NCBI GenBank assembly: GCA_963793265.1
Contig: CAWBZI010000001.1
Span: 1-64,000, forward strand
Direction: 5' to 3'
Source: an uncultured cyanobacterium
Lineage (GTDB): Bacteria; Cyanobacteriota; Cyanobacteriia; Phormidesmidales; Phormidesmidaceae
Length of the DNA stretch: 64,000 bases
In this document: positions 1 through 19,256 of the stretch, one piece after another
How the letters are laid out: each line of letters starts with the position of its first letter
Numbering within the stretch: the first letter of the stretch is position 1
Position numbers and translations under genes: made by a program
The notes under the pieces: generated by a model
The model's input: only the letters and a program-made list of their open reading frames with translations
What the model was told of the DNA's origin: nothing
Database searches by the model: none

Positions 1-436
1 AGCAAATCAAGATCGCTAATTTGGCGAAGAGATATGTTTTGATAGGCGCTGATGGCTAAGAGGGGGCCTTTGAATGCGATCGCCTGTAAGCCCGAAGCTT
101 CAAAGCATTTAATCAAGCGGCACAGCTCCTTAGTCAGTATTAGATTATGGTACGTGTTCTGACGAAGAAAGCCTCGAGCTGAGTTAAAATATCGGCAGAT
201 AGGTTTTCAGCGCATATCTGCTTCAAGTTACAGCATACTATTGGCAAAACGCCGTGCTGCGCGGCAGTTTGGAAGAAGAATATCCAGTCGACAGGGGTAT
301 TAGCTAGCTCATGAATGCGATCACTTATCGCTTCAGAAGGATTGAGCCTGGCACAGCATAGCAAAAGCTGTAGCGCCGTCTGCGAATGACAGCTCATCTT
401 TGAAGATACCGTTTCTTGTATTAACTGAGCGACCAT
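1..436 (-). CDS. Nucleotidyltransferase family protein (NTP_transf_5-like) of the lasso cluster; frameshifted, runs off the window edge
   Basis: ORF 140-436 has DW..FFQTAAQHGVLP. Other frames below 140 read ILTKELCRLIKCFEASGLQAIAFKGP and AISAYQNISLRQISDLDL, i.e. the KG...R..xDxD motif. At least 2 frame breaks. Confidence 0.8.
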
Positions 437-674
437 TGTATTAAAGTATTATCAGAGTCGTTAGTCATAGCAAAGTGCGGATGCATTCGTACCTTGCTAG
501 TCACTTTGGCCGTTGTTTCATAACAGGTTTCAGCCGACGTTAGTGTCGTAACCCAGGTGACAGGAACTATAGTATTAACCTATTGCAAGCAGTATCAGAG
601 ACATCAGTACAAACAGTCCGAAATTTCATACGCTTCATTGCTAGTCAACAGTTAGAACAAGCACCTTCTTAAAA

Positions 675-2490
675 TCATCGATAGTTTCTCGCCTGTGTCT
701 CAAACAAGTTGGCATACAGCATTGCTTCTCAATCAGTTCATCGTGGCTACCGCCCTCTACAATTCGGCCTTGATCCATCACATAAATCCGATCTGCCATT
801 TTTACGGTCGATAGGCGATGCGTAATTAAAATGGCGGCCTGATCTTGAATAAGTTCTCTAAAGCGCTTAAACACCTCGTATTCTGCCTTTGGATCCATCG
901 CGCTCGTTGGCTCATCTAGCACAATCACCTGAGAGTCTCGCAAAAAGGCTCTAGCTAGCGCCACCTTTTGCCATTGCCCAATACTCAGCTCCTCACCGCC
1001 CTGGAATAGCTTGCCTAGCATCGTGTCGTATTCTTTCGGCAGGCTAGTAATAACATCGTGAGCCCCAGAGCGTTTTGCAGCCGCCATCACAGCACCATCT
1101 TCTGGCGGAAGCTGAATATTGCCTAGCCAAATATTGTCTTGAGCCGAAAGGTGATACTTTGCGTAATCTTGAAAAATAACGCTAATCTGCCGCCGCAAAA
1201 TCAACCACATCTCAGATCTTGCAGGTCAACCCCATCAACTGTGATACGACCCCCCGTTGGATCATAAAGGCGACACCAACAGCTTAATCAAAGTCGTCTT
1301 GCCAGAACCATTCTCTCCTACCAGGGCGATTGTCTCTCCCGGACGCACCGTTAGCGATATATCTGCTAAGGCCTGACGGGTCGTTCCTTCGTACTGAAAG
1401 TCAACATGATCAAACACAATGCCTTCTGTCATCGTCGCAGGCATTACTTTAGGGTGCAATGGCGCAGTGATGTTTGGCTTAAGATCTAAAAACTCGTAGA
1501 GATTCGTCAAAAAGAGATTATCTTCATGTAGCCCTGAAACGCCAGACATCAAAGCCGTCAGCGAATTTTGTCCTCTTTGTAGAGCTTGATGATACAGCAC
1601 CAAATCACCTAGCTTGAGTACACCTTGTAGCGTTTGGTAAAGAATAAAGCCGTATATGGCACCCACCAAAATTCCTGAGAGTATGCTGACGGACAGAAAG
1701 GACAGCGACCGGCGGGTCGTCAGCTTGAGCTTAGCCTGATAAAGGCTAGCCCGCAGGCGATCAAATCGCTGGCTGAATAGGTCGCCTAGCTCAAAAAGCC
1801 GAATTTCTTTTGCAAACTGCTCTCCGGTCATCAACCAGGAAAGATACATCGACTGCCGTTCTACAGGCGTCCAGGTGCGCTGCCATTGATAAAGCTCACG
1901 GATTATATTGCAGTCGCACCAGCACAGAAGGAATAGCCGCTACTATCAAAACGCCCAAAATTCCCCAGTGAAGGGTCAGCAGCAGGCCCACCATTGCGAT
2001 TAAAGAAATGCTGTTTTGCCCTACTTGGGCCAGCCTCGCCAAAATCTGGTTTGGGCGGTAGGTTGCTTCTTGCTGCGCTCGTTGAAGCGTATCGTGGTAG
2101 CGGGGATTTTGTAGTAAGCGCAAATCAATTTCAATAGACTTGGCATGTAAAATACTACGCATGTAGTCTGATACTTTCTGAGTTTGTGCAGTACTAACTA
2201 ATTCAGGAACAGCTCACCATCGTTATTAGCACTACAAACACCACTCCGACCAGCAGCGGTGAAATCTGCCGCATTATCTGCTGCGGCTCGGCAAGTGCCA
2301 AGCCTTCAGTTAATGCATCGACAAGCAGCTTTACTAAATAAATAGAGGCTAACGGTAGCAGCCCTTGAACAAACAAAAGGCTTAGCTTAGCGACAGTCCA
2401 AGCCGGACTACTCTGCCACACAAGCCGCAAGGCAGGTATTAATTTCTGAGTACCTACAACAAATTTATTTAACGTTCGGCCAAACTGCAT
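675..2490 (-). CDS. ABC exporter (fused TMD+NBD), split by several frameshifts
   Basis: Four ORF pieces join into one exporter: TM segments, Walker A GENGSGKTT, signature LSIGQWQKVALARA, Walker B VIVLDEPTS, H-loop ITHRLST. The likely true C-terminus LYANLFETQARNYR* ends at 675 in another frame. Confidence 0.85.
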
Positions 2491-2523
2491 AGTGGATTCA
2501 GTCGTGACTGCTCAGGAGTTTTT

Positions 2524-3374
2524 TCATTTGCATGATTGGTCACTTAACCGCACTAAATCCGGCAGTTCTTCTAACCCAGGTTTGCCAACAAAGCGATAGC
2601 AAGGAACTTGCTCAAGCAACTTTGTACATTGCTGAAAGTGCTTTTTAAGCATTTGCGGGCTGGACAGCGTTTTTGTTGCACGAGTATGACTTACCACATG
2701 GGTAAAAGCGTCTTTCGGATGCATAGATATAATGCGATGCTTATTGCCGCTATCTAGAATATATAGCTTCTTCAGCGGTAGCGACTTCGATTGAAAACCG
2801 CTCTTAAAGTTATAAGCTCTTTTATATGCGTGCGCAAACAGAGGAGACATATCATCGGGATTCTTTCCAAGTGCGACGGCAGATTCCGGTGCGAGTTTGC
2901 ATTCAGGGAAAGAAGGAATAACGTTTACGACACTACTATTTAATTGAAGCGTCATCACATCGTCTGTAAGGACAACCCTTTGCATGTAGCGCTGCTGCCA
3001 ACGTAGATTTCCCACAGCCCGAGCCACCTAGAAATCCTATGGCAGTATCTTGAATAGTGGCGCTGCTAGCGTGCAAAACAAAGTAGCCTAGCTGCCGTAG
3101 TATTATTGACAAACAGCCACCTAAAATATTAGGCGCAATCATTTCGCGAGTAACGCCGTCAAAGGGCTCAAAAGTTACAAACTTTCCATGAGAAACTAAG
3201 CAAGTCCCAAGGTGCTCAAATTTGCACAAAAGAACTTGGGGTGAGAGTGAAACTGACTCTCGGTTTATAGTACCAATGCGTACCACTACGTCAACTGCAG
3301 ACGTTCCAGCGAGGGCCCCAGGCAGCACGGATCTCAGAGTGAATATTTAATCCATAGGCATAGTAGTGATACAT
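2524..3374 (-). CDS. HPr-kinase-like lasso peptide kinase (PadeK-type), frameshifted
   Basis: ATG at 3374 gives MYHYYAYGLNIHSEI. Following frames carry LHAS, Walker A GGSGCGKSTLA and LTDD. Lies directly after the precursor. Confidence 0.8.
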
Positions 3375-3588
3375 AGAGTTCTAATAGTTTCGTTGTGCAG
3401 AGGGTTTCTACTGAATAGTTTTCTTCATAGGTAGACTAGAATGGTTTTCTAGCTCATCCTTGTTTTGTTACAATAATGAGCTAGAGATCTTTAATCTAAG
3501 TAGTTGTGCAAAATAAGCTACATACAATTCATCTAAATCCTAGAGCTTAGGGATTTACCAGCCGTATTTTGCAAATATTTTTGCACGG

Positions 3589-3622
3589 GGACTTATGCAT
3601 CCACAAGCCATGCTACAAGTCC
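3589..3622 (-). terminator. Stem-loop just 3' of the lasso precursor stop codon
   Basis: Minus-strand RNA GGACUUGUAGCAU pairs with AUGCAUAAGUCC (one G-U, one bulge). No U-tract. Confidence 0.5.
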
Positions 3623-3635
3623 ACTTCAATTGAGA

Positions 3636-3794
3636 TTAAATAGGATCAGCGTCCCGTGAACCCTGAAGTTGTGCTACCGGATTGCCTTGCGCATTAAAGA
3701 CAGTATCGTCATTACCATTCGTGAAGTTTGCTTGCGTTATCTGTTCTACATTCCCGTAGGAGGTAAGAACAGGTTGGATGTAGCTTTTTTTCAT
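3636..3794 (-). CDS. Lasso peptide precursor (52 aa), absent from the ORF track
   Basis: Hand translation: MKKSYIQPVLTSYGNVEQITQ-ANFTNGNDDTVFNAQGNPVAQLQGSRDADPI. Leader motif YxxPxLxxxGxxxxxT, Thr at -2, core Ala1 with Asp8/Asp9. SD-like AAAGGAAA upstream. Confidence 0.92.
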   Translation of the reverse strand: MKKSYIQPVLTSYGNVEQITQANFTNGNDDTVFNAQGNPVAQLQGSRDADPI

Positions 3795-3908
3795 GATGAT
3801 GTTTCCTTTGAAGTGTTAAAGCATTACGTGTTCAATTAAGATGCACCTCCTTTGGACTTACAAACCAACTTATGAAGTAGTAGCTTCAGGCTGGTATGCC
3901 AGGATCAC

Positions 3909-5942
3909 CTAATCTATGTCAAACTTACCCTGCATACGCTGAAACCAAAGGGCTATGGCTGTAGAACTCCAAACCGTCAAGCTGTCTTTTTTTGCTATGT
4001 TCACTTTCGGCGTACTATGCTTTTGATATGATTTTAATCGCTGCCATGCCTCGCGCCATTCGTCAATATTAATATATGAGCTTGCTAGCTGTCTTTCATG
4101 GCTGAGCACTTTTTCAAAAGAACGACTATCTATATTCAACAAACCGTTAAGGAAATTAGGGGACATACTGGTTTTATCTCCTCTCTTCAGAATTGCCTCT
4201 GGCAGTATTCCTGCCAAACCTCGTCTCATAACAACCCGACCCAACCCCTGATTGAATTTTTGTTCAGATGGAATAGATAAGCAGAACTCGACAAGTCTTC
4301 TATCTAGAAAGGGATGCCGAGCTTCAAGACCAAAGGCCATCGCGTAACGATCTGTAGATTCTAGGTTTAGAGATAATAGTCCGCTTGTTAGAGTCTGCCA
4401 ATGGCTCTGTCTCACAGACATTCGCAAGCTTCTTTCTCTCCCGTACTCTCTCATTCTCTCATGCAAGTTAACCTTCTCTATAAGCCAGCTATTGACCAGC
4501 TCTGAAGAGAAACTTTCTTTGGTTCTATCTCTTTTGAAAATCTCATTTAGAATTCTTCTTGCAGCGGGTCTAATCCCGTGCTTTATGTATAGCTTGCGAC
4601 GCGAATAGTTAAACTGATTGTGGATACCGCTAGCAGTTTTTACGAAGTCTAAAATTTTTCCTGTCTTAGCTAGGTGTCTTAGATGACCTATAGCGTAGTA
4701 GTTGATAATAGTATCAGGAGGTACGTCGTAGTTTTTCCCGGTAACTTCTGCGGCATCAGCAAACTCATTCCATCTTTGTTCTATCGCTAGCTCATTTAAT
4801 CGCTCTACACCATGACACACTACTGTATCACCATCAAACCCGTCGAATATGACCCGCACTCCTGCCCTATAGGTTGCCTCGTTGAGCCTCCACGGTAAAT
4901 AATGAGACGGCCCTGTGACTGGCTCATCCTCGTATTGCCACATCTGTTCCACATCAGTCAGTGGCCCAAAATTGTCTACATAAATATAATGAGGCGTATA
5001 TTTGCCTTGTTTCAGTACCTCGTTGATATAGACCCTTTCATCACACTCTCTCACTGTGTCGAAAACGTTTGAAAACGTATGAAGTGTTTCTCTAGTTGTC
5101 GCATCTAAAAGTTTTCGAGCCATACAGGTAACTGAAGATGAGTCTAGCCCACCGCTCAAATGGCTACCTATTGGAAATGCGCTGCGCAACCGGCAGCGTA
5201 CGGCCTCTGTAAACATCTCTCTGAATGACTCTGCGTAAGCTTCATCAGACTCTAAAATAAGCTCGTAGTTCGGATCCAACGCCCAATATATTTCGCTACG
5301 AATACCTAATGTATTTATCCACATTCTCGTAGCGGGAGGAAGCCGAACGATCTCTTGGAATGTAGTAATTTCCTGATCCTCTAACATCGGCACCAAGTAA
5401 TCAGCAATCCGAGTTTCGTTAAGCCGACACGGCACCCAGTCGAGGCACAACAGCCCTTTGATCTCAGAAGCTACTGAAAATGAATGCTCAGAAGAATAAT
5501 GATAGAAAAAAGGCTTCACCCCAAAGTGATCTCTAGCACAAAATAGCTGCTGCTTCTCGCCATCCCAAATCAAGAAGGAAAAATCGCCTAGCAAGTGCTC
5601 AGGGCAATCACTATTCCATTTCTCATAAGCCGCCAAAATAAACTCACTATCAGCAATTTTCTCCAGCGGTCGGTCAGGTAAATCCAACACTTCAGCTAGC
5701 TCATCGCGGTTATCAATTCGCGCATCTGCCGTAATCGCCAACGACCCTTTCACTAAAGGTAGATTCTCATGCAAAGACTCCGGCGTCGTCCACAACATCC
5801 GATGCCCCAGCCCTATCGGCCCATCGCACCACACATCTACACCATCGGGCCCACGATGCGCCAGCACATCCACCATCTGCTGCAAATCTTCAGCCTTTAC
5901 TGGTTGCTCATCAAGACGATAGATACCTGCGATACCGCTCAT
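3909..5942 (-). CDS. Lasso peptide isopeptide bond-forming cyclase (AsnB-like)
   Basis: AsnB-like motifs HRGPD, ARDHFGVKPF, LSGGLDSSSV, EARHPFLD. N-terminus is MSG rather than MCG, so the glutaminase Cys is absent. Overlaps the B2 stop (ATGA). Confidence 0.92.
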   Translation of the reverse strand: MSGIAGIYRLDEQPVKAEDLQQMVDVLAHRGPDGVDVWCDGPIGLGHRMLWTTPESLHENLPLVKGSLAITADARIDNRDELAEVLDLPDRPLEKIADSEFILAAYEKWNSDCPEHLLGDFSFLIWDGEKQQLFCARDHFGVKPFFYHYSSEHSFSVASEIKGLLCLDWVPCRLNETRIADYLVPMLEDQEITTFQEIVRLPPATRMWINTLGIRSEIYWALDPNYELILESDEAYAESFREMFTEAVRCRLRSAFPIGSHLSGGLDSSSVTCMARKLLDATTRETLHTFSNVFDTVRECDERVYINEVLKQGKYTPHYIYVDNFGPLTDVEQMWQYEDEPVTGPSHYLPWRLNEATYRAGVRVIFDGFDGDTVVCHGVERLNELAIEQRWNEFADAAEVTGKNYDVPPDTIINYYAIGHLRHLAKTGKILDFVKTASGIHNQFNYSRRKLYIKHGIRPAARRILNEIFKRDRTKESFSSELVNSWLIEKVNLHERMREYGRERSLRMSVRQSHWQTLTSGLLSLNLESTDRYAMAFGLEARHPFLDRRLVEFCLSIPSEQKFNQGLGRVVMRRGLAGILPEAILKRGDKTSMSPNFLNGLLNIDSRSFEKVLSHERQLASSYINIDEWREAWQRLKSYQKHSTPKVNIAKKDSLTVWSSTAIALWFQRMQGKFDID

Positions 5943-6382
5943 TTTCTTACACCTGCAACAGCAAGCGGTTTAAACCGATCCAAATCACTCAGCCCACCCA
6001 TCACAACGCAGCCCTCATACTCAATCCAGGCGTGCGCTTCAAGCTCCTGTTTATCACCTTTAGCCACACCAATATGTAGCTGATGAACATAGCCATATCG
6101 ATTCAACAGAATTTGCGTGGTAAAAGCCTTTACCAAACACATAGCGCCCCCAGGCGTATGCCGACTAGCAAAGGTGACAGCCCATCGAATGAACTGAATA
6201 GAGACAGTTTGCCTAGCGCTAGTGCAAACCCAAATAGAGGAAACTTTATTGAGAAGCTGCCTCACAAAGCCAAAAGGAAACAGCCACAAAGCTAAACGAA
6301 TGCAGTTGAGCAACAGACACGCATAGAGCAATACCCGTCGTTCTTGCCAAGAAAAAGCAAGCAATTTGTTAAGTCGCCTCAT
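5939..6382 (-). CDS. Lasso peptide biosynthesis B2 leader peptidase (transglutaminase-like)
   Basis: CLVKA...LHIGV...AHAWIE Cys/His/Glu pattern; lies between the RRE and the cyclase. Confidence 0.9.
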   Translation of the reverse strand: MRRLNKLLAFSWQERRVLLYACLLLNCIRLALWLFPFGFVRQLLNKVSSIWVCTSARQTVSIQFIRWAVTFASRHTPGGAMCLVKAFTTQILLNRYGYVHQLHIGVAKGDKQELEAHAWIEYEGCVVMGGLSDLDRFKPLAVAGVRK

Positions 6383-6679
6383 CGTTTACCTCAACCAGGC
6401 GAGCCGCCTTCAGCTCCATAATTATTTTTGTCAGGTCTTGCTTACACTCCTCTGAGGGCACGTCATATTCTTCTAGCAAAATGCCGTGCAGCTCATCAAA
6501 CCTTCGAGACTGCTGCACCAGCTCCCAAATCCGAGCGCCTACCTCATTGAGGCCGTAGTAAACGCCCGAAGCCATATTCAAAATAACGGCCTCCCCCCCA
6601 GCTCAGACGAAATCTGATCTTGAGTCGGTGAAATGGTAGCGCTCGCAGAAATTTCTAATAATTTGGAAGACATATGCAT
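6369..6679 (-). CDS. Lasso B1 / PqqD-family RiPP recognition element; one frameshift in a G7 run
   Basis: YYGLNEVGARIWEL...EEYDV motif. The upstream frame MHMSSKLLEISASATISPTQDQISSELGG joins it as ELGGEAVILN if one G is added at 6593-6599. Confidence 0.88.
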
Positions 6680-6876
6680 TTTGAACCGTAGATTTCACAA
6701 GCCGTATGTGGTACGACTGTTCGATTACACTTACATTTACTCAAACAAATCTTGATATCTGGCAAACTGTCCGCACTTTCACGCAGGCTTTAAGCTCGCC
6801 TACAAAGCCTTAACAGTAGCGTGCGTGGTTTGTTCTGTAAGGCATTGGCAATAAGGCACACGCGCCAGCACGCAAG

Positions 6877-7784
6877 CTATCTCGAAGCCGCCTGCTTACT
6901 AATTACAGCCATCGCCACATAGTAATAAACCGTGAACAGCAGTCCAACGAAAATTTGAGCCCCCCAGGAACCATGCCAAAAGTCGAACCACCACTCACCC
7001 CAGTAGGCCGCAGCCATCACCATCAGCACAATTCTAGGCACATTAAACGCTAGGCCCAATCATAATACCTGTGCCCATCAGGCCCAAAATCTGCCCCCGA
7101 CTCCGCCGAAAAAAAACGCCCAGCAGCAGCCCCGTAATCGCCATCGCCACCGCCAAATTAAAGCCATTACACCGCCAGGCCACCTCCACCGCCCCAGACG
7201 GCATCGTAATAAATCGCCCCCCTTCCACCGCCGCAGGCTGACCCACCCACTGCAACACCTTCACACTCACCGCCGCCATCGCATTCTCCAGCCAAAACGG
7301 TGGCACCAAAAACCGCCACACCCCCTGAGCAATTACCCCTGGGCGCGTGTAAACCGTCAGCGGCATCAAAAAAGCCGTCAGCGGATAGCACGCAAAAAAC
7401 GTAGCACCCCAGGAGCGTAAGGGCAATGCCGACTAGCACAAAAAGCCAGACCAAAGCCTGCGACCAGAGTTCGGCTCTAAAAAAGGGGTATAGCGCGATC
7501 GCTCCCATCACCAACAAATGACCCACATACCGATCCGCCTCAGGCGCGACCACCCGGCTCAACTGCCGCCGACTTCGCCAAAGCGGAGCCATCCCCAGCA
7601 AAGCCGCGCTCGAAATTAGCACCAAGCCGGTCGAGCCACTGACCGAGCGCACCACCAAATCTTGCAGCCACAGCGGAAAATACAGCAGCCCCACTACCAG
7701 GCCCGCCAAAACAATTCGACCGTGACCGGTCGAGAGCAAACTGCGAACTGGCTTAACGACAGGTCCAACTACATTGCTCATCAA
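6877..7784 (-). CDS. Exosortase/archaeosortase family transpeptidase (probably cyanoexosortase C type), frameshifted into 3 ORFs
   Basis: Multi-TM protein with VEVAWRCNG (catalytic Cys), FNVPRI (Arg) and FWHG (His); close to a PTPA-CTERM gene. Confidence 0.82.
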
Positions 7785-7790
7785 TATCTC

Positions 7791-8429
7791 CTAGCTCGCA
7801 ATGCGACGAAGATTTGCCACACCCAGCCGACCCAGCGAAATTAAACCAAGCCCAACGACAAACAAATTCCCCACACCCGCCAAGGCTGATTTGGTAATGT
7901 CTGTTCTAGTGTCAGCCTTCAGTTGCTCCGCTTCCAGGCTAATCTGCTGCGCGGCCTGCTCTAGCTGCTCAAGCGTGACGTTAGCCGGTAGCTCATCACT
8001 GGCTCTACCCGCCTCAATCTGAAGCCGAAGCTGCTCTGTTTGCGAGTTAATATTGCTCAGCGTTTCGCCCTGCAAAATTAAGCTATCGCGAATCATGAGC
8101 GTGCAAGAGAGCACAAAAGCCACGCCAATTCCCATAGCCAGCAGAGACAGAGGTCGATTGATGCGGCGATTGTTGGCCTGGCTATAGAGCAATAGCGCTA
8201 CGCCAAATAGCAAAATTACGCTGCGATCGCCCGTCTGCTGCAAAACGCTAATCCGCCACGGCAAATCAAACAGATTCAACGGCACCGCCAGGGCCAGCAC
8301 ATCCACAGCAAACCCAGCCAAACAAACCACACCCACCACCAAACAGATCTGCCTGGAAATAGAAGTGGCTCTTTGCGACACGGGCCTGCGATTGTCGTAC
8401 TGAGCTGGCGGTCTTTGAAGACTGGTCAT
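7791..8429 (-). CDS. HpsJ-like membrane protein
   Basis: TM helices, WRISVLQQTGDRSVILLFG motif, coiled-coil loop, C-terminal helix. Likely start MTSLQR at 8429. Confidence 0.65.
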   Translation of the reverse strand: MTSLQRPPAQYDNRRPVSQRATSISRQICLVVGVVCLAGFAVDVLALAVPLNLFDLPWRISVLQQTGDRSVILLFGVALLLYSQANNRRINRPLSLLAMGIGVAFVLSCTLMIRDSLILQGETLSNINSQTEQLRLQIEAGRASDELPANVTLEQLEQAAQQISLEAEQLKADTRTDITKSALAGVGNLFVVGLGLISLGRLGVANLRRIAS

Positions 8430-8456
8430 AAGAGTGCAATAGGTAAGGATAGGGTA

Positions 8457-8478
8457 GGGGCATAGCACGCTACGCCCC
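8457..8478. repeat. REP-like short palindrome
   Basis: GGGGCATAGC-AC-GCTACGCCCC; related copies at 22691 and 50584. Confidence 0.6.
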
Positions 8479-8520
8479 CGGTGCAACATTATTTAAGTTA
8501 CAAAAGCAAATCAGTTAGTC

Positions 8521-9186
8521 TTACGCTTCCGTAGAGTCTTGATCGGCCAAGTTACGCTTACGCACAGCCGCCATGTCCCATGCCAATCAGACCCGGCAAA
8601 AGCGCAGGCGTAGGGATTGGCTCAGCCGAGATTTCACCTGCGAACGCAGTCACGCCTGTGAAACGGTTTGTGCTAAAAGTTGCTGATAACAGCACCTGTC
8701 CCGACAACAGATCCCCTGCCGTCTGTGAAAACACCTCTCAGGCCACCACCATTAAGCCCAAAAGCGCCAGTGGGAAGACTCATAGCCTGGGTAAAGCCAT
8801 CAAACTCAGTTAGATCAAATCTCAGGGTTGTGCCAGCCGCCTGAATGCCGCTAATGAAGCTGGTGATCGGTGCTGTTGGGAAAGTTATTGACTGCTGTCA
8901 GCGAAGAGAGGTCGCTAATTCTAGCGGTACCAGAATTTGAAAAAGACCCTGTACCGGCACCAACCGTCAGATCACCCGCTGTTCCAGCGTCGGCGTTTGA
9001 ATTTGTTCTTAGAAAATCGAACTGATAGTTGTTGGGTGCTGTTGTAGGTGCAGATCGAAAAATTCTGACTCTTCCAGCAAAGTTGAAGTCGCCGTTGAGC
9101 GTGAGAGCATGGGCAGGGGCGGAAACTGTCGTTGCGATCGCCACCGCACCAGCCGTCACAAAAAGCTTATTTACATTGTTGAACAT
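8521..9186 (-). CDS. PTPA-CTERM sorting-domain secreted protein; at least 3 frameshifts
   Basis: Signal peptide ending APAHA, Ser/Thr/Gly/Asn-rich body. C-terminus IPTPALLPGLIGMG (8576-8617) then MAAVRKRNLADQDSTEA* in shifted frames. Confidence 0.82.
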
Positions 9187-9499
9187 TTAAAGGAACTACC
9201 GTAATAATGAGTTGTAGAGATAAATATCAGATACGAAAGCCCGTTTGCAGCCAACTGCTATCGTCCAAGTTTTGCAGCAGACTCACAATTGTGATTTAAT
9301 AACTCTCGTATCGGTAGTGCCCTAGCCATGAGCAAACATAAATCGTCTGCCAGGCCCCTTTTTGTCTGTACTAAAGTACTCTACACCCGCATTCTAATAG
9401 TTAAATCTATCTTTCTTGATGTTTGCATCTTCTTAATCAAGTAATCTACAAATATCAAAAGACTGTAAAGCCTTACTTATTTGTCCTCGTCCAAACCAG

Positions 9500-11681
9500 C
9501 TACTTCTCTCTAGCGACTACCCCCAGCACATTCACATCTGCCAGCCTTAGCTGCTCCATCGCCCGCTCCAGCAGCGGCTGTTTCACCCGCCCCGACTGCG
9601 CCACCAGCAGCAGCCCGTCCACATGGTTCGCTACCAAATAAGCATCCGACTGCCCCAATAATGGTGGCGTATCAAAAATAATCAAATCAAACACCGGCTT
9701 CATCTTCTCTACCAGCTTTCGCATCCCCCCAGAGCCCAGCACTCGCGAAGGCTCAATCGGATGCGAACCCGAACACATCACATAAATCGTCGGATCTTCT
9801 GAAAACTTCTGAATCACCGCCGGATTCACCGCCCCAGAAAACAAATTTGTCAGCCCCTTCTCATTCGGCAGCTCCAAATACTGATGAATTTGAGGATTTC
9901 TTAAGTCCGCATCTACCAGCAGCACCCGCTGCCCCATCGCCGCCGCCGCCTCCGCCAGGTAAATCGCCACCGTCGATTTGCCCTCACCCGCCGTCGAAGA
10001 GCTAACCGCAAGCGATCGCACCCGCTTCCCTGAATTCGGCTGTCGCAGATTGGTATACAGCAATCGAAAAGCCTCCGAAAACGGATCGCTATCGTAAGCC
10101 TTACTCACCACCTTGCCATTGCGCGGAACCGATCCATTTTGAGCTGCTCTTACCCTGGTGCCCTCTTTAATGTTAGAGCCCACATACTGCAAAGACTCCG
10201 TAAATCTCTCCTGAACATCGCCCCCATTAAGAATCTGATTAGTTGGAATCCTGGCCAAAATTGGAAGCTGCGTTGACCGCCGAATCGCCTCATCGCCATA
10301 GATAACGCCCCCCGACTTGTCGAGTAAAAGCGCTGCCCCTGTACCTAGCATTAGGCCCAGCATCGCGCCTAGCAGCAGGTTCTGCGGCAGGCTCTCAGGC
10401 TGAGGCCGAGGCGTCGTTGGCGGCGTCACAATCTCCCAGGGCACTTCCCGCTGGGCCGCATCAATTTGCAGCGCCTCCCGCTTCGATAAAAACTGGTTCA
10501 AATTGTTAGTCGCAATCTCTAGCTCTCGGGTAATGTCTGAATAATCTCTCGAAATACCTGACAAGTCGTCTACATTCGTATTCAACTCCTGTAGGGTTTG
10601 CCCTAGCGATCGGTCACGCTCCTCTAATTCCTGGATTTGGCTCAACACCTCTCGCTGAGACTGCACCGCCTGCTCCTCCAACAGCCTCAGCAAATTATCT
10701 CGCTGCTCTTGCAGCACCTCCATATCGGGGCTACTGTCTAAATATATTGTTGAAGCTTCAGCCATTTGCGCATCCAGCGCCAGCAAACTATCCAATAGCG
10801 ACTGATAGCGAGGATTTTGATTGAGCAAAGAAGAGCTGGCCTGCTCCTGCGGCTGACCCGCCTGCTGCTGAAGCTCAGCATAGAGCTGACGCTGTTCTCT
10901 AAGCTGCGACTGCACCGCTAGCTGCTCATTAGAAAACGAACTCACCTGAGAGGCTAGCTGAGAACCCCGAGACTCCGGATCAATAAGATTGTTGTCCGAG
11001 CGCAGCGTTTGCATCTGGCCCTGTAGCGTATTTACCTTATCGCGCAAATCTGGGAGCTTTTGCTCAACAAAATCAATTCCCCGGCGAATATCTGCCTGCT
11101 TAGAAGCCAAACTGTAGTCCAAATAAGCTTCTGACAGCAGATCTAGCGCAATCTTCACCGTCTGAGGATCGAGATCTTGAAAAGACGCCTGAATAATCTG
11201 TGAGTCATCACCCGCGCTACCTACTGACAGTCGCCCAGCAAGCTGATCGTAACAAGGATCGTAGTTCGTCTGCTCAACTGGCGCGGCTACTCCCGACTGG
11301 CAAAAAGTCGGGTCTTGCTGGCGCATTCCATCTACAACTGGCTGTAGAATATTGGGGCTCTTGAGTAGCTTCAGCAAGTCGCCAGTAACCACCTCATCAG
11401 GCTGTATAGTCGTCAGCGTATCCGGCACGTCTGAAATCACCTCAGTTTCAGTACTTTGCGCCTGCACCAAAATCTCAAATAGGCCGCTATAAGTCGGCGT
11501 ATCAGTTAGCACCTTTGCGCCCCGCTAGCGTTGTAGTCGCCGCCGTCATCCCCGCAATCAGCCACCACTTTCTTTGCAGCGTCTTTAAGAGCGCACCAAA
11601 ATTAAGACCGCCTTCTTCTTCCTCCATTGGCCCTACCGGCGGCATGGCTATCGGCATGGTTAAAGCTGTGTCGGTTTTCAT
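9500..11681 (-). CDS. wzc: Wzc/GumC polysaccharide co-polymerase with tyrosine-kinase domain; frameshift near 11515
   Basis: N-terminus MKTDT...LKTLQRKWWLIAG from 11681, coiled coil, TM, FSEAFRLLYTNL, Walker A GEGKST, LVDADLR, FDTPP. Confidence 0.88.
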
Positions 11682-11691
11682 AGAATGCTAC

Positions 11692-13179
11692 CTAGTCAAA
11701 AATCCCAAAGAGTCTTAAAGGGAAAAATACGCTTTGAATCACCCGGCCTACGGGGCCTAAAATTGCGCCCACTCTGTCGTCAATGTTGGCGATCGCAGAA
11801 GGATTCACCACCACCACATCGTTATTCCGCAACAGCGGATTATTCTCCTCATCAATCCCTTGAGCAAAGTCCACATCAATCACCCGGCGACTCACCGAAC
11901 CATTCGGATTCAACCGAATCAGCTCAGCCTCTAGCTCGTTCGCCCGGTTATTAAATCCACCTGCCGCCAAAATAGCCTGACTTAAAGACGTATTCGGCGG
12001 CAGCTCCAATCTTCCGGTACGTTCTGTTTCGCCCACCACATTTACCTGAATAGAATTTGGCGAAAAGCTCGCTTCGGCGATCGCACTCACCTGCTCAGGA
12101 TCCACCTCAGTCGCCGCTGGCACAAACACCGTATCCCCTGCCTGCAAAATCGCATCCTGCTCCAAATTGCCCACCTCAATCAGCCGCGCCAAATCCACCT
12201 CAAAGAGCTGAGAAGTCCCCCCTCGCGTCGCCCGCACCACCTGCACACTCCGAATATCCGCCTCCGGCTTAATGCCGCCCGCCACCTGCAGCGCTCTTGT
12301 CACGGTCGTTGGGCTATCACCACCGCTACCGCTTGAGGCCCCCGGCACACCAGCATCACCCGTACGCGCCTGCCCCCCTTGCAACGTATAGGAGCCAGGC
12401 CGATACACCTCACCAATCACCGCAATATTAATCGGCTGCGTCACGCTCCCAGCAAAATTCGCCTCCGAAAGCAGCGCCATCTCCGCCAGCGGCACCGTCG
12501 TTGTCGGCACAAAAATAGAGTCTCCATCTCGCAGCGTCACGTCCTGACGCTGATCGCCCGTTTGCACCAGCGCCCACAGATCCACCTGAAACTGCTCATA
12601 GCTACCGTCCGCTTTTTGCCTTTGCACCTGCACCTGGCGCACGTCTGCGGCCTGCGTCGTTCCGCCCGCATCTCGCAATAGCTGAGTCAGTCGGGGCAGC
12701 GACGAGCCCTCACGGCTGAGCGCATAAGACCCTGGACGATTCACCTCACCCGCAATCCCGATTTGCAGCGGTCGGCTGCTAATCAGGCCCACCGTGAGGA
12801 TCGGTCGTCTGAGAAAATTGCCATAGCGATCGCTCATCAAAGCCGTCGCCTCAGCAATCGTCAGCCCGCCCACGTTCACACTGCCCACCAAGGGCAAATT
12901 CACCGTACCGCCCACGAGTACCTGGCTCTCGCCGCTGTACTGCGGCACCCGAAAAATGTCTACGCGCAGTACGTCTCCGGCCCCTAGCGTGTAGGGCGTT
13001 TCGGCCAAAGGCGCTGGGGGCGCTGTCGGGATTGGCGCTGTCGGAACGGGTGCGACAAGTACTGGTAGACTAGGCTGGGCGACGACAGCAGCAGGGCTCA
13101 TAGCCAAGCCTAAAAACGCAGACAGTAGCGGTAGCTGAAACAATAGACGCGATCGCATAGGCACCTCCAATCTACTCAT
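11692..13179 (-). CDS. wza: Wza-like polysaccharide export protein with SLBB domains
   Basis: YTLGAGDVLRV, LPLVGSV, repeated GEV.RPGSY and L..GD.IFVP motifs. Confidence 0.9.
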   Translation of the reverse strand: MSRLEVPMRSRLLFQLPLLSAFLGLAMSPAAVVAQPSLPVLVAPVPTAPIPTAPPAPLAETPYTLGAGDVLRVDIFRVPQYSGESQVLVGGTVNLPLVGSVNVGGLTIAEATALMSDRYGNFLRRPILTVGLISSRPLQIGIAGEVNRPGSYALSREGSSLPRLTQLLRDAGGTTQAADVRQVQVQRQKADGSYEQFQVDLWALVQTGDQRQDVTLRDGDSIFVPTTTVPLAEMALLSEANFAGSVTQPINIAVIGEVYRPGSYTLQGGQARTGDAGVPGASSGSGGDSPTTVTRALQVAGGIKPEADIRSVQVVRATRGGTSQLFEVDLARLIEVGNLEQDAILQAGDTVFVPAATEVDPEQVSAIAEASFSPNSIQVNVVGETERTGRLELPPNTSLSQAILAAGGFNNRANELEAELIRLNPNGSVSRRVIDVDFAQGIDEENNPLLRNNDVVVVNPSAIANIDDRVGAILGPVGRVIQSVFFPLRLFGIFD

Positions 13180-13928
13180 ATAAACCGTCTGAAAAGAGCA
13201 GCCGTTGAGCTTAGTCTTAACTACCTGTACGAGGCAGCAGATCTCAACGCCTAAATTACTAATGCAACCTATCTAGAACTAATCCGAAAGACTATGAAAT
13301 AAAGTTGATAAGTTGACGCAAAGTTCATACACTTTCTGATTGAAGTCTGGCTGCCTTGAAGGGTTTATAAACCATCAAGAAATCTAGATGAAAATTAAGG
13401 CGATGTGTCTTGTTAAATTCAAGAACAGGGTGTAAGTTGATATGTATGCAAATTTTAGGATTTGCAATATGCAACTACCATTAAGTTTCTCTAGTAGAGA
13501 CTTATTAAGCATCAGCATTCAAAACTTTTATTTATAGACGGCACGTCTCCGTATATATAGACGCTCACTTCTGCCTTACGCTCAAGTCTTCACTTCTCAG
13601 CCGGTTCAAGTTCCCCTTAGTAGGGGAGAAAGTCCGCTGCGAGTACATAAGACTTCTTGAGCCAAAATGACGTTATTCATTTTTTTAATCGCATCTGCAG
13701 CAATCTATTGATCTCGCAGATCATCTACCAAGTTTAACTTCAACAAAACTATCAGACGGGCTAAAGCTGTTCTCAGTACCGTCTTGAGTTTGCGTGTATA
13801 TTTTGTTCTTTTGAACAAAGAGAATATTAGAGTGCAGTCTTTTTTACCCGGAAATTGCTTAGAGAAGTGTAAGAAGACAATCATAGGGTGCCGTGTTCAG
13901 CATTTTGAAAATTACTCTTGCAGGTCTA

Positions 13929-14735
13929 ATGTTGTCATCTCATCCACAAGGATCAGTCTCTCTCAAGCCAAAGCCTTCAATTCAAAAAAGCCCTAGCCAA
14001 GATGTCATTGGCTTTCCAGTGTGCGTACTCTCTCTCGAAGAGCACATTGATCAAATATTAGAATGGGCAAGCGCGCGGCTAAGCAAGATCGTTTGTGTTG
14101 CCAACGTGCACATGCTTATGGAAGCACACTGGAATGAAGACTTTGCTGGCATACTCCGCAAAGCAGACATGCTCACACCCGATGGTGCGCCTCTGGCCTG
14201 GATGGTGGGCTGGCTAAGGCTGAAGCCTCAAGAAAGAGTTGCAGGTATGGATGTTTTTCTAGGCATTTGCCAGCGAGCCAAAAAGCAGTCTGTAAAACTG
14301 TTCTTTATTGGCTCAACGTCTGATGTTCTATCGCTTATTAAGCAGCGGATTGAACAAGAATTTCCGAATGTGGAAATTTCAGGCATTGCAGACTTCCCCT
14401 TTCGACAGCTCACGGCAGAAGAAGATAACGCCCTAGTAGGAGAAATCAACCAAAGCGGTGCAAATATCGTCATGGTGTCTTTGGGATGCCCTAAGCAAGA
14501 GCGATGGATGAGCGAACACCAGCATAGAGTGCACGCCGTCATGATCGGGCTCGGTGGCGCTTTCCCCGTATTTGCAGGCCAAGTAAAGCGCGCACCCACA
14601 CTCGCAAGAAAGCTAGGACTAGAGTGGATGTATCGGCTAGTGCAGGAGCCCAAAAGGCTTTGGAAACGCTACTACAGCACCATTCCACCATTTGTATTTT
14701 TGGCGCTGCGGCAGGCTATTCGCAGAAGCTGGTAG
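13929..14735 (+). CDS. WecB/TagA/CpsF glycosyltransferase (GT26)
   Basis: ANVH, PDGAPL, RVAGMD, LGCPKQERW, GLEWMYRL.QEPKRLWKRY. Confidence 0.92.
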   Translation: MLSSHPQGSVSLKPKPSIQKSPSQDVIGFPVCVLSLEEHIDQILEWASARLSKIVCVANVHMLMEAHWNEDFAGILRKADMLTPDGAPLAWMVGWLRLKPQERVAGMDVFLGICQRAKKQSVKLFFIGSTSDVLSLIKQRIEQEFPNVEISGIADFPFRQLTAEEDNALVGEINQSGANIVMVSLGCPKQERWMSEHQHRVHAVMIGLGGAFPVFAGQVKRAPTLARKLGLEWMYRLVQEPKRLWKRYYSTIPPFVFLALRQAIRRSW

Positions 14736-14822
14736 CGGTGGGTTACTTTTGATACTATCGTCAGCAACCGCTACTCAATTCAGCCGTGAACGGTTGCGAT
14801 ATAATTGCCATAATTGATTGGT

Positions 14823-15722
14823 ATGGGTGGTTTTGTATCCGTGACTTTTTGCTCTGTTATAATTCCAACTTACAATCGCCCTGATCGATTGGCAGGCTGC
14901 TTAAGTGCGCTAACTCAGCAAAGCTACCGGCGCGATCACTTCGAGGTCGTCATCGTTGATGATGGCAGCGCTACACCCATGGATAGCGTCGTTGAGCCTT
15001 TCCGCTCACAGCTAGATATTGTGCTAATACGCCAGACTAATGCGGGGCCAGCCGCTGCGCGAAACACAGGCGCACGTCAGGCAAAAGGAGAGCTGCTCGC
15101 CTTCACTGACGACGACTGTATGCCCAGCCCCGACTGGCTAAGCGGGTTTGCCAGCCAAATTTCTCATCATCCAAAGGCAATGATCGGCGGGCGCAGCCTC
15201 AACGCGCTGCCGAACAATCTCTATTCCACAGCGTCTCAGGCGCTTATCGACTATCTCTATACCTACTACAGCGATCCGAGAAAGGAGATGTTTTTTGCTA
15301 GCAACAATATTGCCATGGCAAGAGAGCATTATTTAGCATTAGGCGGATTCGACACGTCTTTTCCATTAGCGGCGGCTGAAGACCGGGAGCTGTGCGATCG
15401 CTGGCACCAAGCCGGGCTCCCCATGCACTACGACCCCAGCATCACCATCCGCCACGCCCACCACCTCTCACTCCGCTCTTTTTTCAAGCAGCACTTCGGC
15501 TACGGACGCGGAGCCTTCTGCTTTCACCAAGTCCGAGCCAAACGCAACGCCAAACCCATCAAAGTAGAGCCCTTCAAATTCTACAAAGACCTGCTCACCT
15601 ATCCCCTCAGCCGCAAAGACGTAAAGTCTCCCTGGTTCGTTTCTATGTTGTTCTTTCTTTCTCAGGTCGCGACGACAACTGGCTTCTTTTGGGAACGCAG
15701 CACACAAAAGAAGCCAGCCTAA
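14823..15722 (+). CDS. Glycosyltransferase family 2
   Basis: SVIIPTYNR, VDDGS, GPAAARNTG, FTDDD, EDREL. Confidence 0.92.
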   Translation: MGGFVSVTFCSVIIPTYNRPDRLAGCLSALTQQSYRRDHFEVVIVDDGSATPMDSVVEPFRSQLDIVLIRQTNAGPAAARNTGARQAKGELLAFTDDDCMPSPDWLSGFASQISHHPKAMIGGRSLNALPNNLYSTASQALIDYLYTYYSDPRKEMFFASNNIAMAREHYLALGGFDTSFPLAAAEDRELCDRWHQAGLPMHYDPSITIRHAHHLSLRSFFKQHFGYGRGAFCFHQVRAKRNAKPIKVEPFKFYKDLLTYPLSRKDVKSPWFVSMLFFLSQVATTTGFFWERSTQKKPA

Positions 15723-16291
15723 AGCAATAGTAAATCAAACAAGTCTTTGACAGTGAACGTCAGCCCCTGCATGAACTCAGGAAAGGGTAATAACGCTTCA
15801 GGTTCATCTATTAACTCTAAGATTTCGATATCCTTCTTAGACTTGTAAACAGTGACGGATTCTTCGTCTGGATCGATCAGCCAGCCGATCTGAGTACCGT
15901 GCTGTAAACAACGAATAACCTTCTTCCTTATCTTCCTGTATCCTTGCCCTGGCGATAGTACCTCAATCGTCCAGTCTGGTGCAAGTAAAAATACATCAGT
16001 AATTTTTCCTTTAGCATCAACTGGAATATGGCCCCAGGTAAAAACAGCAATATCTGGAACGATAGAAGCACCCCCAAAAGTACAGCGAAGCTCAGGAAAA
16101 GCACAGGCAATTTTTTGAGTTTCGACGACAGCATTGATCACATTTACAAGCTTATCTTGGAATCTGCTGTGTCTTCCTTGCGACATAGGCTTTTGAATAA
16201 TTTGGCCATCAATGTACTCGCTCGCAGGCTTCGTTTCCGGCAGCGCCAAAAAAGCATCGAGCGACAGCGGCCTAGCTTGAGTTTGAACCAT
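15719..16291 (-). CDS. Uma2 (DUF820) family endonuclease-like protein
   Basis: ETKPASEYIDG, PELRCTFGG, VPDIAV, PDWTIEVLSP, GWLIDP. Confidence 0.9.
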   Translation of the reverse strand: MVQTQARPLSLDAFLALPETKPASEYIDGQIIQKPMSQGRHSRFQDKLVNVINAVVETQKIACAFPELRCTFGGASIVPDIAVFTWGHIPVDAKGKITDVFLLAPDWTIEVLSPGQGYRKIRKKVIRCLQHGTQIGWLIDPDEESVTVYKSKKDIEILELIDEPEALLPFPEFMQGLTFTVKDLFDLLLL

Positions 16292-16392
16292 TTGAGTACC
16301 CTTCGCTTGAATTGGCTACCGACCTATCTTAGATCATTGGCGACAAGGCAAGACTCTGGTAAGGATGAGTAGCTAACTTAAGCCGCAAACCC

Positions 16393-17565
16393 GTGAAACT
16401 TCTTTGGATGACAGAACGCTTTCCGCCTGATATTGGCGGGGTAGCGCGCAGCTCAGAGCGAATTGTGCGATCGCTCACCACCTTAGGCATTTCTGTAGAT
16501 GTCGTCACTTGGAGCCGCTATGTAGACCCTGGAGAAATCCTTCCTCCTGAAGCCTCACCAACAGAGAACAAACAGTTACGCATCTACAGATTAGGGCCCT
16601 ATCGCAACTGGGACATGACCCTGCCGCATACGATGAACCTATTGGACTGGCTGCACCAAAAGCAACAGTACGATGTCGTTTGGGGACATTACCTTTTTCC
16701 TGCTGGATTTGTTGCAGCCTGGTTTTCGCAGCTCAACCACATCAAGTCTATCGTTAGCGCCAGAGGCAACGATATTGACAAAGCCATTTTTCCACCTGGA
16801 GACTTTTCACGGTTGCAGTGGACGCTAGCGAATGCGACGAGGGTGACCGCCGTGAGTGCAGACATGGCGAAGAAAGTAGAAACCTTAAGCCATCGAACCG
16901 CAGAGGTACTCGCGAATGTTGTCGATACAAGTGTGTTTAAGCCAAATGAAGAAGATAACGCTACTTTACGAGAATCCTTTGGAATTTCTTCACAAGAGAC
17001 TGTGCTTGGCTTTTCGGGTGAGCTGCGAGAGAAGAAAGGACAGCGATTTCTGTTGCAAGCATTAAGTGAAGTGCGACAAAAGCGGTCTGCTTGTTTGTTA
17101 ATAGTTGGAGAACTACGGCCTGAGAGCCAGGCTTTTTTACAGAGCTATGCTTCCACTAATCCTGAAGACGGGGCCAGGGTAATTGTTACCGGGCATTTAG
17201 ATTCACCTGATCTAGTAGCCCAGCACTTGCGCCTGTGCGACGTATATTTGCAGCCGTCGCTGTGGGAGGGAATGCCCAATGCGCTTATGGAAGCGATGGC
17301 CTGCGGCTGCGTTTGTATTGGTAGCGATGCAGGCGGTATTCCTGAAGTCATTGAGCATGAAGTGACCGGGTTTATGGTGGCGCGATCGCACCTCCACTAT
17401 CTAGGCACAGCCATCCTGGAATATCTCGAACTTGACGAGTCGCACCGCCGTAGAATTAAGCGACAGGCCAGCGATCGCATCGCCCAACAACATACCCTCG
17501 CTCAAGAACAAAAAATGCTAAAAGATCTGATGGAATCTTTAGTCCCTGAGTTTCAGCCCCGCTAA
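16393..17565 (+). CDS. Glycosyltransferase family 4
   Basis: FPPDIGGV, KKGQ, PSLWEGMPNALMEAMACG. Confidence 0.88.
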   Translation: MKLLWMTERFPPDIGGVARSSERIVRSLTTLGISVDVVTWSRYVDPGEILPPEASPTENKQLRIYRLGPYRNWDMTLPHTMNLLDWLHQKQQYDVVWGHYLFPAGFVAAWFSQLNHIKSIVSARGNDIDKAIFPPGDFSRLQWTLANATRVTAVSADMAKKVETLSHRTAEVLANVVDTSVFKPNEEDNATLRESFGISSQETVLGFSGELREKKGQRFLLQALSEVRQKRSACLLIVGELRPESQAFLQSYASTNPEDGARVIVTGHLDSPDLVAQHLRLCDVYLQPSLWEGMPNALMEAMACGCVCIGSDAGGIPEVIEHEVTGFMVARSHLHYLGTAILEYLELDESHRRRIKRQASDRIAQQHTLAQEQKMLKDLMESLVPEFQPR

Positions 17566-17581
17566 AGTCTCCATCAGACTA

Positions 17582-18247
17582 CTACTGATAAGGCTTTTGC
17601 AAAGCGGCTCCCGACTCAGCTTCAGACATCACACCCGTCATCACGCTCCAATTAATCAGCACCCGGTAGGCCATCTGCAAGCTCTCACCAAACACAACCA
17701 CGCCCTCCTCATGCCCAGCCATCGCAAATATTCTCTGCTGCATTAAAGAGCTTTCTTGAAACAACCACCGCGTTTCCGCTGCCATCTCCGGCGTTCCGTA
17801 GCGCACAGTCTCACGCGTTGTCGGCACCTGATGAAGTAGCCGCTGCCACAGCGAGCGATGATGAACGTGAATAATCGAGCGAATGCCGGGGTGAGCCTGA
17901 TAGATAACGCCGTGAGTCAAAGATTCTGACGAAGCCTGGCGCAGCCCTTCGCATGTCAGCGTGTTTTTCTGTGGATCGAAAGCAGTCACTAGCGCATAGT
18001 CGGCAGCAGCAAGAGTTTCAAGATTGCCCGTTTGAGTGCCTGAAACAATGAACTGTGGCGATGCTGCCAGATCGCTATCTACGCGCTGAGAAATATTGCC
18101 AAAGCCAATACCGTCAGGATACTCACCAATAAAGTTGAGCTGGTGGAGGGCGTTTCTGTAGGGTGTGATAGGCGCGATCACCTCACCCGTCACCACATCT
18201 GCCTTCACCCACTCACACCGATACTTGATATAGCCTTCGTCAATCAT
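17582..18247 (-). CDS. Class II aldolase/adducin family protein
   Basis: GNISQR, ASSESLTH, IIHVH, GHEEGV. Confidence 0.85.
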   Translation of the reverse strand: MIDEGYIKYRCEWVKADVVTGEVIAPITPYRNALHQLNFIGEYPDGIGFGNISQRVDSDLAASPQFIVSGTQTGNLETLAAADYALVTAFDPQKNTLTCEGLRQASSESLTHGVIYQAHPGIRSIIHVHHRSLWQRLLHQVPTTRETVRYGTPEMAAETRWLFQESSLMQQRIFAMAGHEEGVVVFGESLQMAYRVLINWSVMTGVMSEAESGAALQKPYQ

Positions 18248-19179: not shown

Positions 19180-19256
19180 CGGATTAATCGTCGTGCGTAG
19201 AATATACCTACATCATATCGCTCCGTCGTTTACCCGGCGCTTATCCAGCCCCGGCC

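Follow-up and report, generated by a model that had tools for sequence, protein, structure and literature searches.

In the 5.68-Mb genome of an uncultured cyanobacterium (G000), the initial 64 kb of contig C1, which stretch we hereafter call the window, open with a lasso-peptide gene cassette directly beside the gene of a cyanoexosortase C (CrtC), the cyanoexosortase C system being completed there by an HpsJ_like_C protein and a PTPA-CTERM target, with the polysaccharide-export genes wzc and wza following behind. Lasso clusters recur at surface-sugar loci far above chance, and their coupling to CrtC is optional. We read the lasso cassette as an optional addition to a variable surface locus, which addition would make a phosphorylated, probably sugar-decorated, and exported accessory of the extracellular matrix, and we assign to this reading a probability of roughly 0.5. 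The cassette recurs together with the CrtC/HpsJ pair, with a priming sugar transferase, and with a block composed of family-4 glycosyltransferases (GT4) and a Wzy-like membrane protein.

The linkage to CrtC was measured in 173 genomes of the host family, with a distance within 12 kb counted as linkage. The lasso cyclase (E<1e-100) was found in 38 of those genomes and CrtC in 70; 13 of the 20 genomes that have both carry the two genes linked, and with the leader peptidase B2 as the lasso marker the count becomes 14 of 24, distributed over three genera. Random 24-kb windows (±12 kb) drawn from five genomes contained an exosortase in 0.4–1% of instances. Two other systems for peptides made on the ribosome and modified after translation (RiPPs) served as controls: the NHLP bacteriocin transporter, a weak control that is probably inherited vertically, lay no farther than 12 kb from CrtC in 0 of 35 genomes, and LanM was near CrtC in 0 of 2.

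Several counts from the same survey weigh against a tight coupling or a matrix role. The linked genomes lack independence, in that 10 of the 14 belong to one genus, and the nominal p-values overstate the linkage for that reason; 10 of the 24 genomes with both markers are unlinked, two of these being broken by contig ends; a B2 match was absent from 46 of the 70 CrtC genomes; among 20 CrtC loci that were sampled as being lasso-free, 19 indeed lacked lasso genes in their vicinity; none stood at the second CrtC locus of G000 itself; and the g37/g39/g40 lasso clade (seven loci, several of them short) showed no glycan neighbours in the stretches examined. Such figures invite the explanation that lasso cassettes simply land and persist in recombining surface-glycan loci, with a peptide—antimicrobial, signal, or other—functionally unconnected to the matrix; an explanation that we consider possible, though clearly less probable than the matrix accessory. 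It is favoured by the patchy spread of the cyclase and by the absence of the cassette from most CrtC loci, but would have to account for the failure of the two control RiPP systems to gather at CrtC.

The CrtC loci themselves vary. The second one of G000 (G000:C1:868503-891201) contains wzc, wza, PTPA-CTERM, HpsJ, CrtC, ATP-binding-cassette (ABC) transporter, and many glycosyltransferase (GT) genes, and in G025 a lasso/HpsJ/CrtC block stands at a site with the same flanking genes. A locus initially scored as lasso-free (L145:3221-12526, in G124) proved to contain a divergent lasso-like cassette behind a second HpsJ, its cyclase reaching 232 bits and thus remaining under the cut-off. In L140 (G081), three tandem CrtC copies are accompanied by HpsJ and PTPA-CTERM genes.

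Outside the family, an even draw of 401 genomes from the class yielded the cyclase in 54, of which 43 were not members of the family and furnished 44 loci. An exosortase lay within 10 kb of the cyclase in at least 3 of the 43 genomes, among the matches listed, and all three exosortases were CrtA accompanied by HpsJ-A—two recognized by NCBIfam, and that of G477 by a partial exosortase plus HpsJ-A. In G411 and G477 (L108:2848-8497 and L106) the CrtA and HpsJ-A genes, which share one strand with the lasso run, are inserted between the kinase and the B1-B2-cyclase genes, a position within the lasso run itself that argues against mere co-residence; no precursor was found beside the cyclase in either genome. 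We next scored glycan-assembly neighbours, defined as the presence, no more than about 10 kb away, of Wza, Wzc, a priming transferase, WecB, a flippase, a ligase, an exosortase, or two GTs. By blast plus Pfam these occurred at 17 of the 44 outside loci, in 11 of 26 genera, compared with about 10% of random windows (two genomes), or 5–8% (five genomes) when only the core genes were considered. The Pfam run covered 266 references, mostly flanking open reading frames (ORFs), with L098, L100, and three late loci scored by blast alone and several loci being short; G046 was scored as ambiguous, both of its GT4 matches being over 10 kb away from the cyclase. Of 77 loci in a named set, taken from the best 80 of 522 matches in an alignment scan and overlapping the other sets, 42 had such neighbours by blast, including 28 of the 36 full-length ones. 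Many of those loci are from the Nostocales, where the cassette has wzc on one side and the same GT4/membrane-protein block on the other, which placement probably goes back to one ancestral insertion. Named strains with an intact arrangement include Leptothoe sp. PORK10 BA2 (L164), in which a sugar transferase, HpsJ, PTPA-CTERM, CrtC, and the lasso genes follow one another, Leptolyngbya sp. AN02str (L231), of the CrtA type, and Nostoc minutum NIES-26 (L179), of the Wzc/GT4 type. A side observation within the class concerns L097, L098, and L100 (g151), whose lasso clusters include JmjC and 2OG-Fe(II) oxygenases and adjoin GT4, Wzc, and flippase genes. To be set against the matrix role are the 22 outside loci that had no glycan neighbour and the five that were ambiguous, and half of the outside loci have housekeeping genes for neighbours (purA, glnA, and fusA, for example), which is again what chance landing and persistence would predict.

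The pairing of lasso cassette and exosortase has taken at least five forms. In the first, the order is HpsJ, CrtC, and then the lasso genes; in the second (G092 and G111), a priming sugar transferase is followed by the lasso genes and these by HpsJ, with CrtC convergent; in the third, CrtC and the lasso genes are convergent; in the fourth, the lasso genes are followed by an inverted nucleotidyltransferase, HpsJ, and CrtC; and in the fifth, CrtC is followed by B2, B1, and the cyclase, after which comes a remnant of HpsJ. Identity of the linked cyclases to that of the window is 24–65%, and on a tree of 78 cyclases built with FastTree the exosortase-linked label required seven changes, six of those changes being forced by the starred branches; in that tree fragmentary cyclases were left out, G124 was found later, and the long branches of G002, G046, and G118 are of unsure place. 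That such different cyclase lineages and two exosortase paralogues should be involved speaks against a fortuitous association of the cassette with glycan loci.

The ancestry of the block in the window is for its part a mosaic, which finding tells against the matrix role and suits an independent hitch-hiker: wza, wzc, and HpsJ have their best matches in the genus of the host; CrtC, the cyclase, and the kinase have theirs in genus g35; and the best matches of B1, B2, and the ABC exporter differ from those of the latter three. In a tree of 37 sampled CrtC-like rows, the CrtC of the window falls in a nine-row clade (SH-aLRT 100) with eight g35 sequences, of which seven are lasso-linked and one is on a 2-kb contig; and among the 70 CrtC genomes, at least 60% identity to a member of that clade was found in only these nine. 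The approximately unbiased (AU) test rejects the grouping of the window CrtC with the syntenic CrtCs of its own genus (p 5e-6), the group having been named post hoc with the tree already seen; this displacement, too, is compatible with recombination alone. Judged by the sequences, these results fit a transfer of CrtC together with the lasso cassette, although physical linkage by itself could explain the joint movement.

The insertion slot offers a further comparison. Four g35 genomes (G095, G096, G106, and G110) have the cassette between CrtC and a convergent block that encodes an unannotated membrane protein along with GT4s, and in the lasso-free G177, G011, G180, G004, and G172 the same slot is occupied by one or two extra PTPA-CTERM genes. 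No insertion-boundary repeat was recognized at the block in the window.

The earlier note on this DNA, made from the window alone, had treated wza, wzc, and the divergent WecB and GT genes as one unit coupled to the lasso genes, and that unit is not what the family conserves. We rejected it as a conserved association, the join being particular to this genome: within the family, wza and wzc adjoin a lasso cluster only in the window and on a contig of G002 that appears non-cyanobacterial; they lie 20–45 kb from the lasso cluster in G109 and G032; and in the lasso-free close relative G177 they (with 74–88% identity to those of the window) are joined to the CrtC module of that genome. Nor does WecB accompany the lasso cluster in a conserved manner within the family. 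The G002 contig just mentioned (L043, G002:C208) has a lasso-type cluster beside wza, the start of wzc, an O-antigen ligase, and a BBP2 barrel, and looks proteobacterial, the genome being listed at 7% contamination. The survey of lasso homologues proposed in the same note fared better: such clusters stand beside CrtC in the 14 of 24 family genomes and beside glycan genes at the 17 of 44 outside loci, and on those counts do not show the scatter over unrelated loci that the note had named as grounds for abandoning its idea. Its interpretation of the peptide as a matrix component is thus upheld in part, by the recurrent linkage to CrtC and glycan genes, but not as regards the unit described; the C-terminal Ser of paeninodin is lacking here.

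The precursor of the window (3636–3794; NF033528, 38.2 bits against a cut-off of 33) has a leader of 21 amino acids with the YxxPxL motif and Thr at −2, and a core of 31 amino acids with Asp at positions 8 and 9, an internal GSRD, and a Pro-Ile end without a C-terminal Ser. With the cyclase, the RiPP recognition element (RRE) B1, and the leader peptidase B2, these features are those of a lasso cluster. The kinase and the NTP_transf_5 nucleotidyltransferase agree with the previously suggested paeninodin/pseudomycoidin type, whereas the C-terminal Ser and the Trp-type (WxxP) leader of that type are absent. The linear LPP type, defined by the lack of a cyclase and by a SipW-like peptidase, does not apply, because both the cyclase and B2 are present; a SipW-like gene was not searched for. 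Among 75 distinct related cores, collected by a strict pattern, Asp or Glu occupies position 9 in 53, a terminal Ser occurs in 20, and an internal GSxD occurs in 31, as opposed to a mean of 2 and a maximum of 8 across 1000 shuffles; that the GSxD is also present in unlinked clusters counts against its being tied to the matrix. The kinase retains the His-Lys-Asp-Asp motif, split over two frames, as aligned with intact orthologues. Elsewhere, L034 and L035 (G007 and G004) have two near-identical precursors with a Cys-containing tail flanking the kinase, the nucleotidyltransferase being located at another place in those genomes.

From what is known of lasso chemistry, B1 would bind the YxxPxL leader and B2 would cut after the Thr-Gln, after which the cyclase would close Ala1 to Asp9. 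On the basis of the conservation of the GSxD motif, we infer that the kinase may phosphorylate the internal Ser25; the nucleotidyltransferase might then, by analogy with PsmN, add hexose onto the phosphate; and the ABC exporter would secrete the peptide product. For the core of the window, the monoisotopic masses calculated are 3227.49 in the cyclic form, 3307.45 with phosphate, 3469.51 with a hexose in addition, and 3631.56 with two hexoses. The precursor has neither a Sec signal nor a sorting tail, for which reason we rejected it as a substrate of the exosortase, which enzyme would therefore serve the PTPA-CTERM protein instead. The two halves of the locus would accordingly be kept together not by a shared enzyme but by shared regulation and a shared destination. 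In Nostoc punctiforme the paralogue CrtB is needed for exopolysaccharide (EPS) retention, motility, and biofilm formation (PMC12188702), and the neighbourhood therefore points to the matrix as that destination. The chemistry, the co-regulation, and the role of the clusters are nevertheless what we infer, which circumstance also limits the confidence in a matrix accessory.

A closer coupling can be imagined, in which the lasso phosphoserine would itself be a primer or linker for a glycan, assembled by way of the priming transferase, GT4/WecB, and Wzy/ligase-like proteins, so that the glyco-lasso would parallel, in miniature, the glycosylated PTPA-CTERM proteins; we hold this to be improbable. 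It could draw on the priming phosphoglycosyl transferase, present in 17 of the 41 lasso loci of the family, eight of those 17 having it immediately before B1, and on the alternation of the cassette with extra PTPA-CTERM genes in one slot; PsmN-dependent hexoses on the phosphate of pseudomycoidin, for which a host GT is not excludable, provide a chemical parallel (PMC6993621, PMC9266682). An unannotated membrane protein of about 450 amino acids, flanked by GT4s and found in 102 of the 401 class genomes (e.g., L164:16855-18252 and L179:19449-20810), would also accord with it, since that protein lies beside 24 of the 77 named lasso loci (best 80 of 522) and an Atlas lead ties it to a cluster with PF04932 in 15% of the members, so that it is possibly a Wzy or ligase. 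Yet the partner genes differ between loci and are missing from many; the precursor lacks a Sec signal and a sorting tail; and the membrane protein gave no Pfam or NCBIfam match, was not found in the assembly of the window, and occurs mostly without a lasso cluster. The cyclase was not seen in 72 of the 102 class genomes that have the Wzy-like protein, and of the 30 with both, only four have them within 12 kb, figures that likewise detract from the matrix accessory; this linkage of 4 in 30 led us to discard the protein as an obligate lasso partner. Still, if a phosphoserine lasso peptide were a ribosomal glycan carrier or linker in the surface pathway of the exosortases C and A for PTPA/PEP-CTERM glycoproteins—a proposition we regard as a long shot—then lasso peptides would have a structural, non-antibiotic function, and the presence of kinase/nucleotidyltransferase lasso clusters in polysaccharide loci across phyla would be explained.

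The nearest published parallel comes from the Bacilli, where paeninodin-like lasso and LPP clusters are embedded in capsular-polysaccharide loci (Popov et al., 2026; PMC13381572), a tendency that, being the same as ours in another phylum, again argues against accidental landing as the sole explanation. That work reports that in P. alginolyticus the lasso RRE gene and an EPS gene rise together in stationary phase, offers a biofilm role as speculation, uses the Trp-type (WxxP) leader as a criterion of the paeninodin type, and states that paeninodins and LPPs are restricted to the Bacillota (PMC13381572). The locus in the window resembles those clusters in having the RRE, the HprK-like kinase, the NTP transferase, and the MsbA-like exporter in or beside a polysaccharide locus, and in its patchy spread, but differs in its Gram-negative cyanobacterial host, in having an exosortase/HpsJ/PTPA-CTERM module as the partner, in the YxxP leader that is not of the Trp type, and in that linear LPP machinery was not seen (PMC13381572). 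The lasso-with-polysaccharide theme is therefore already known, and the previous statement that no characterized system couples a lasso peptide with EPS or exosortase genes holds with respect to function but not with respect to the lasso/capsule pairing, which is in print for the Bacilli (PMC13381572).

With the pseudomycoidin (psm) and paeninodin (pade) clusters the window shares the split B1/B2, the cyclase, the His-Lys-Asp-Asp kinase motif, the nucleotidyltransferase, and the ABC exporter (PMC6993621, PMC9266682). The kinases of those systems modify a C-terminal Ser (PMC9266682), and PsmN is required for the hexoses on the phosphate, a contribution by a host GT being again left open by those sources (PMC6993621, PMC9266682); the core in the window instead ends in Pro-Ile and contains the internal GSxD, and the gene order B1-B2-C-A-K-D-N is a further difference. 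A precedent for phosphorylation of a non-terminal Ser exists in the bsf cluster of the likewise Gram-negative Bradymonas sediminis, which has the same seven genes and whose BsfK phosphorylates Ser3, a residue within the ring (PMC10368454); there, however, Ile stands at −2, whereas the candidate Ser of the window is in the tail and Thr occupies −2. The genes of the window pass the cut-offs of the NCBIfam cyanobacterial lasso family (NF033535, NF033528, and NF033537), for which family neither a chemical characterization nor an exosortase linkage was found in the literature searched. The CrtB system of Nostoc, for its part, is similar in having the exosortase beside wza/wzc and PEP-CTERM-type targets, but its exosortase is a paralogue distinct from CrtC, and the available text of that paper describes no RiPP cluster at the crtB locus and makes no mention of CrtC, PTPA, hpsJ, or lasso (PMC12188702). 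A rumen survey recorded glycosyltransferases in 36% of clusters (PMC7533575). No report of a link between lasso peptides and exosortase or PEP-CTERM systems was found in the literature searched, most subscription journals being outside its scope.

What appears to be new is the enrichment in cyanobacteria, the recurrent association with CrtC or CrtA plus HpsJ, and the GSxD site inside the core. On the role of phosphorylated lasso peptides, the paper of 2026 on the Bacilli, as far as its available text goes, only speculates on biofilms (PMC13381572); to this question the present analysis adds an enrichment measured against a background rate and a RiPP control, a recurring exosortase/HpsJ surface-sorting partner recruited with two paralogues, and, with GSxD, the prediction of an internal site of phosphorylation, which mass spectrometry can check. 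Filamentous cyanobacteria offer clear read-outs in gliding, EPS retention, and biofilm formation, so that the matrix hypothesis is directly testable; and even if the cassette were only a hitch-hiker, the locus would still represent an uncharacterized lasso family with likely new tailoring chemistry.

Regarding the layout of the locus, scans of the window with NCBIfam and Pfam demonstrated the identities of all the named genes and confirmed their order and strand, so that the minus-strand run from wza to the nucleotidyltransferase described in the earlier note, its flanking by divergent WecB/TagA and family-2 glycosyltransferase (GT2) genes on the plus strand, and the gap of about 200 bp between exosortase and B1 all proved correct. 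From the contig start, the minus strand encodes the PsmN-like NTP_transf_5 nucleotidyltransferase (1–436; PF14907, E 5e-11 on 3–137, and tblastn with intact relatives; one frameshift, clipped at the contig start); an MsbA/HlyB-type ABC exporter (641–2490; NCBIfam matches under cut-off, several frameshifts), which is 72–76% identical to intact relatives across most of its length; the HprK-like peptide kinase (2524–3374; TIGR04352, E 5e-5, under cut-off, and aligned to intact orthologues); the precursor already described; the intact, asparagine-synthetase-like lasso macrolactam cyclase (3909–5942; NF033535, 934.7 bits against a cut-off of 525); the intact B2 leader peptidase (5939–6382; NF033537, 105.4 bits against 33, and PF13471); and the PqqD-type B1 (6369–6673, with its start at 6673; PF05402, E 2.6e-19; one frameshift). 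We rejected the cyclase as an amidotransferase of the XrtA system (TIGR03108), with 229 bits against a cut-off of 817, NF033535 being the model that passes.

Continuing on the same strand, CrtC (6877–7784) lies in three frames, the three pieces all matching NF033464 and together spanning model positions 2–277, each under the whole-protein cut-off owing to the frameshifts; the approximately 200 bp between its stop and the B1 start correspond to 310–480 bp in five relatives with the same junction. There follow the CrtC-associated HpsJ_like_C protein (7791–8489; NF050019, 222.3 bits against 140); a frameshifted secreted PTPA-CTERM protein (8511–9186; NF033465, 31 bits against 29 over the first 14 of 26 positions, and translation); the Wzc polysaccharide co-polymerase/tyrosine kinase (9500–11687; TIGR01007, 126.9 bits against 108; one frameshift near the start), whose N-terminal piece gave a weak PF02706 match; and the outer-membrane polysaccharide-export protein Wza (11692–13179; PF02563 plus SLBB domains). 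On the plus strand, WecB/TagA/CpsF (13893–14735; TIGR00696, 179.6 bits) and the GT2 (14814–15722; NCBIfam GT2 matches under cut-off) diverge from the run, the GT2 having no close orthologue in the related loci compared (best match 33%). Wza and Wzc were thus present in the window, in which stretch, whose contig stops inside the cluster, neither a flippase nor a priming transferase was found. Promoter and terminator scans across the locus remained at chance level, and Rfam gave no match in 1–20000.

Seven genes—wzc, PTPA-CTERM, CrtC, B1, the kinase, the ABC exporter, and the nucleotidyltransferase—are broken across frames, with about a dozen breaks within 11.7 kb, and the first 12 kb of C1 have a median ORF length of 157 amino acids, which is below that of the internal regions. 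Taken at face value, those breaks and short ORFs could signify a decaying island, the whole block being a pseudogenized insertion in this strain; this we consider very improbable. Near-identical metagenome contigs have compensating indels at no fewer than six sites (1900, 2110/2120, 2544, 2972, 7059, and 11519/11523), the evidence consisting of single, fragmentary contigs of depth 2.5–6 from three DNA runs, none of which spans the locus; the breaks are concentrated at the contig end, the end of contig C2 being fragmented likewise; and the cyclase, B2, HpsJ, wza, WecB, and GT2 are all intact. Because of the compensation at those sites and the concentration at the contig end, the frameshifts are probably assembly errors.

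The remainder of the nucleotidyltransferase was not found in the assembly, the left end of the cluster lying beyond the contig start. The C2 end (G000:C2:838000-873742) is rich in glycan genes, some of its GT2s matching those beside the lasso/CrtC locus of G092 and G111; it shows no sequence overlap with the C1 start, to which, from its gene content, it is a possible neighbour. Downstream of the GT2 in the window, a Uma2 endonuclease-like gene, a GT4, and a class II aldolase-like gene occupy 15719–18247, with no link to the lasso locus. Finally, at the second lasso loci of G093 and G111 (L074 and L075), two divergent sets of B2, cyclase, and kinase genes stand back to back, next to an epimerase and a TPR-GT41 gene.

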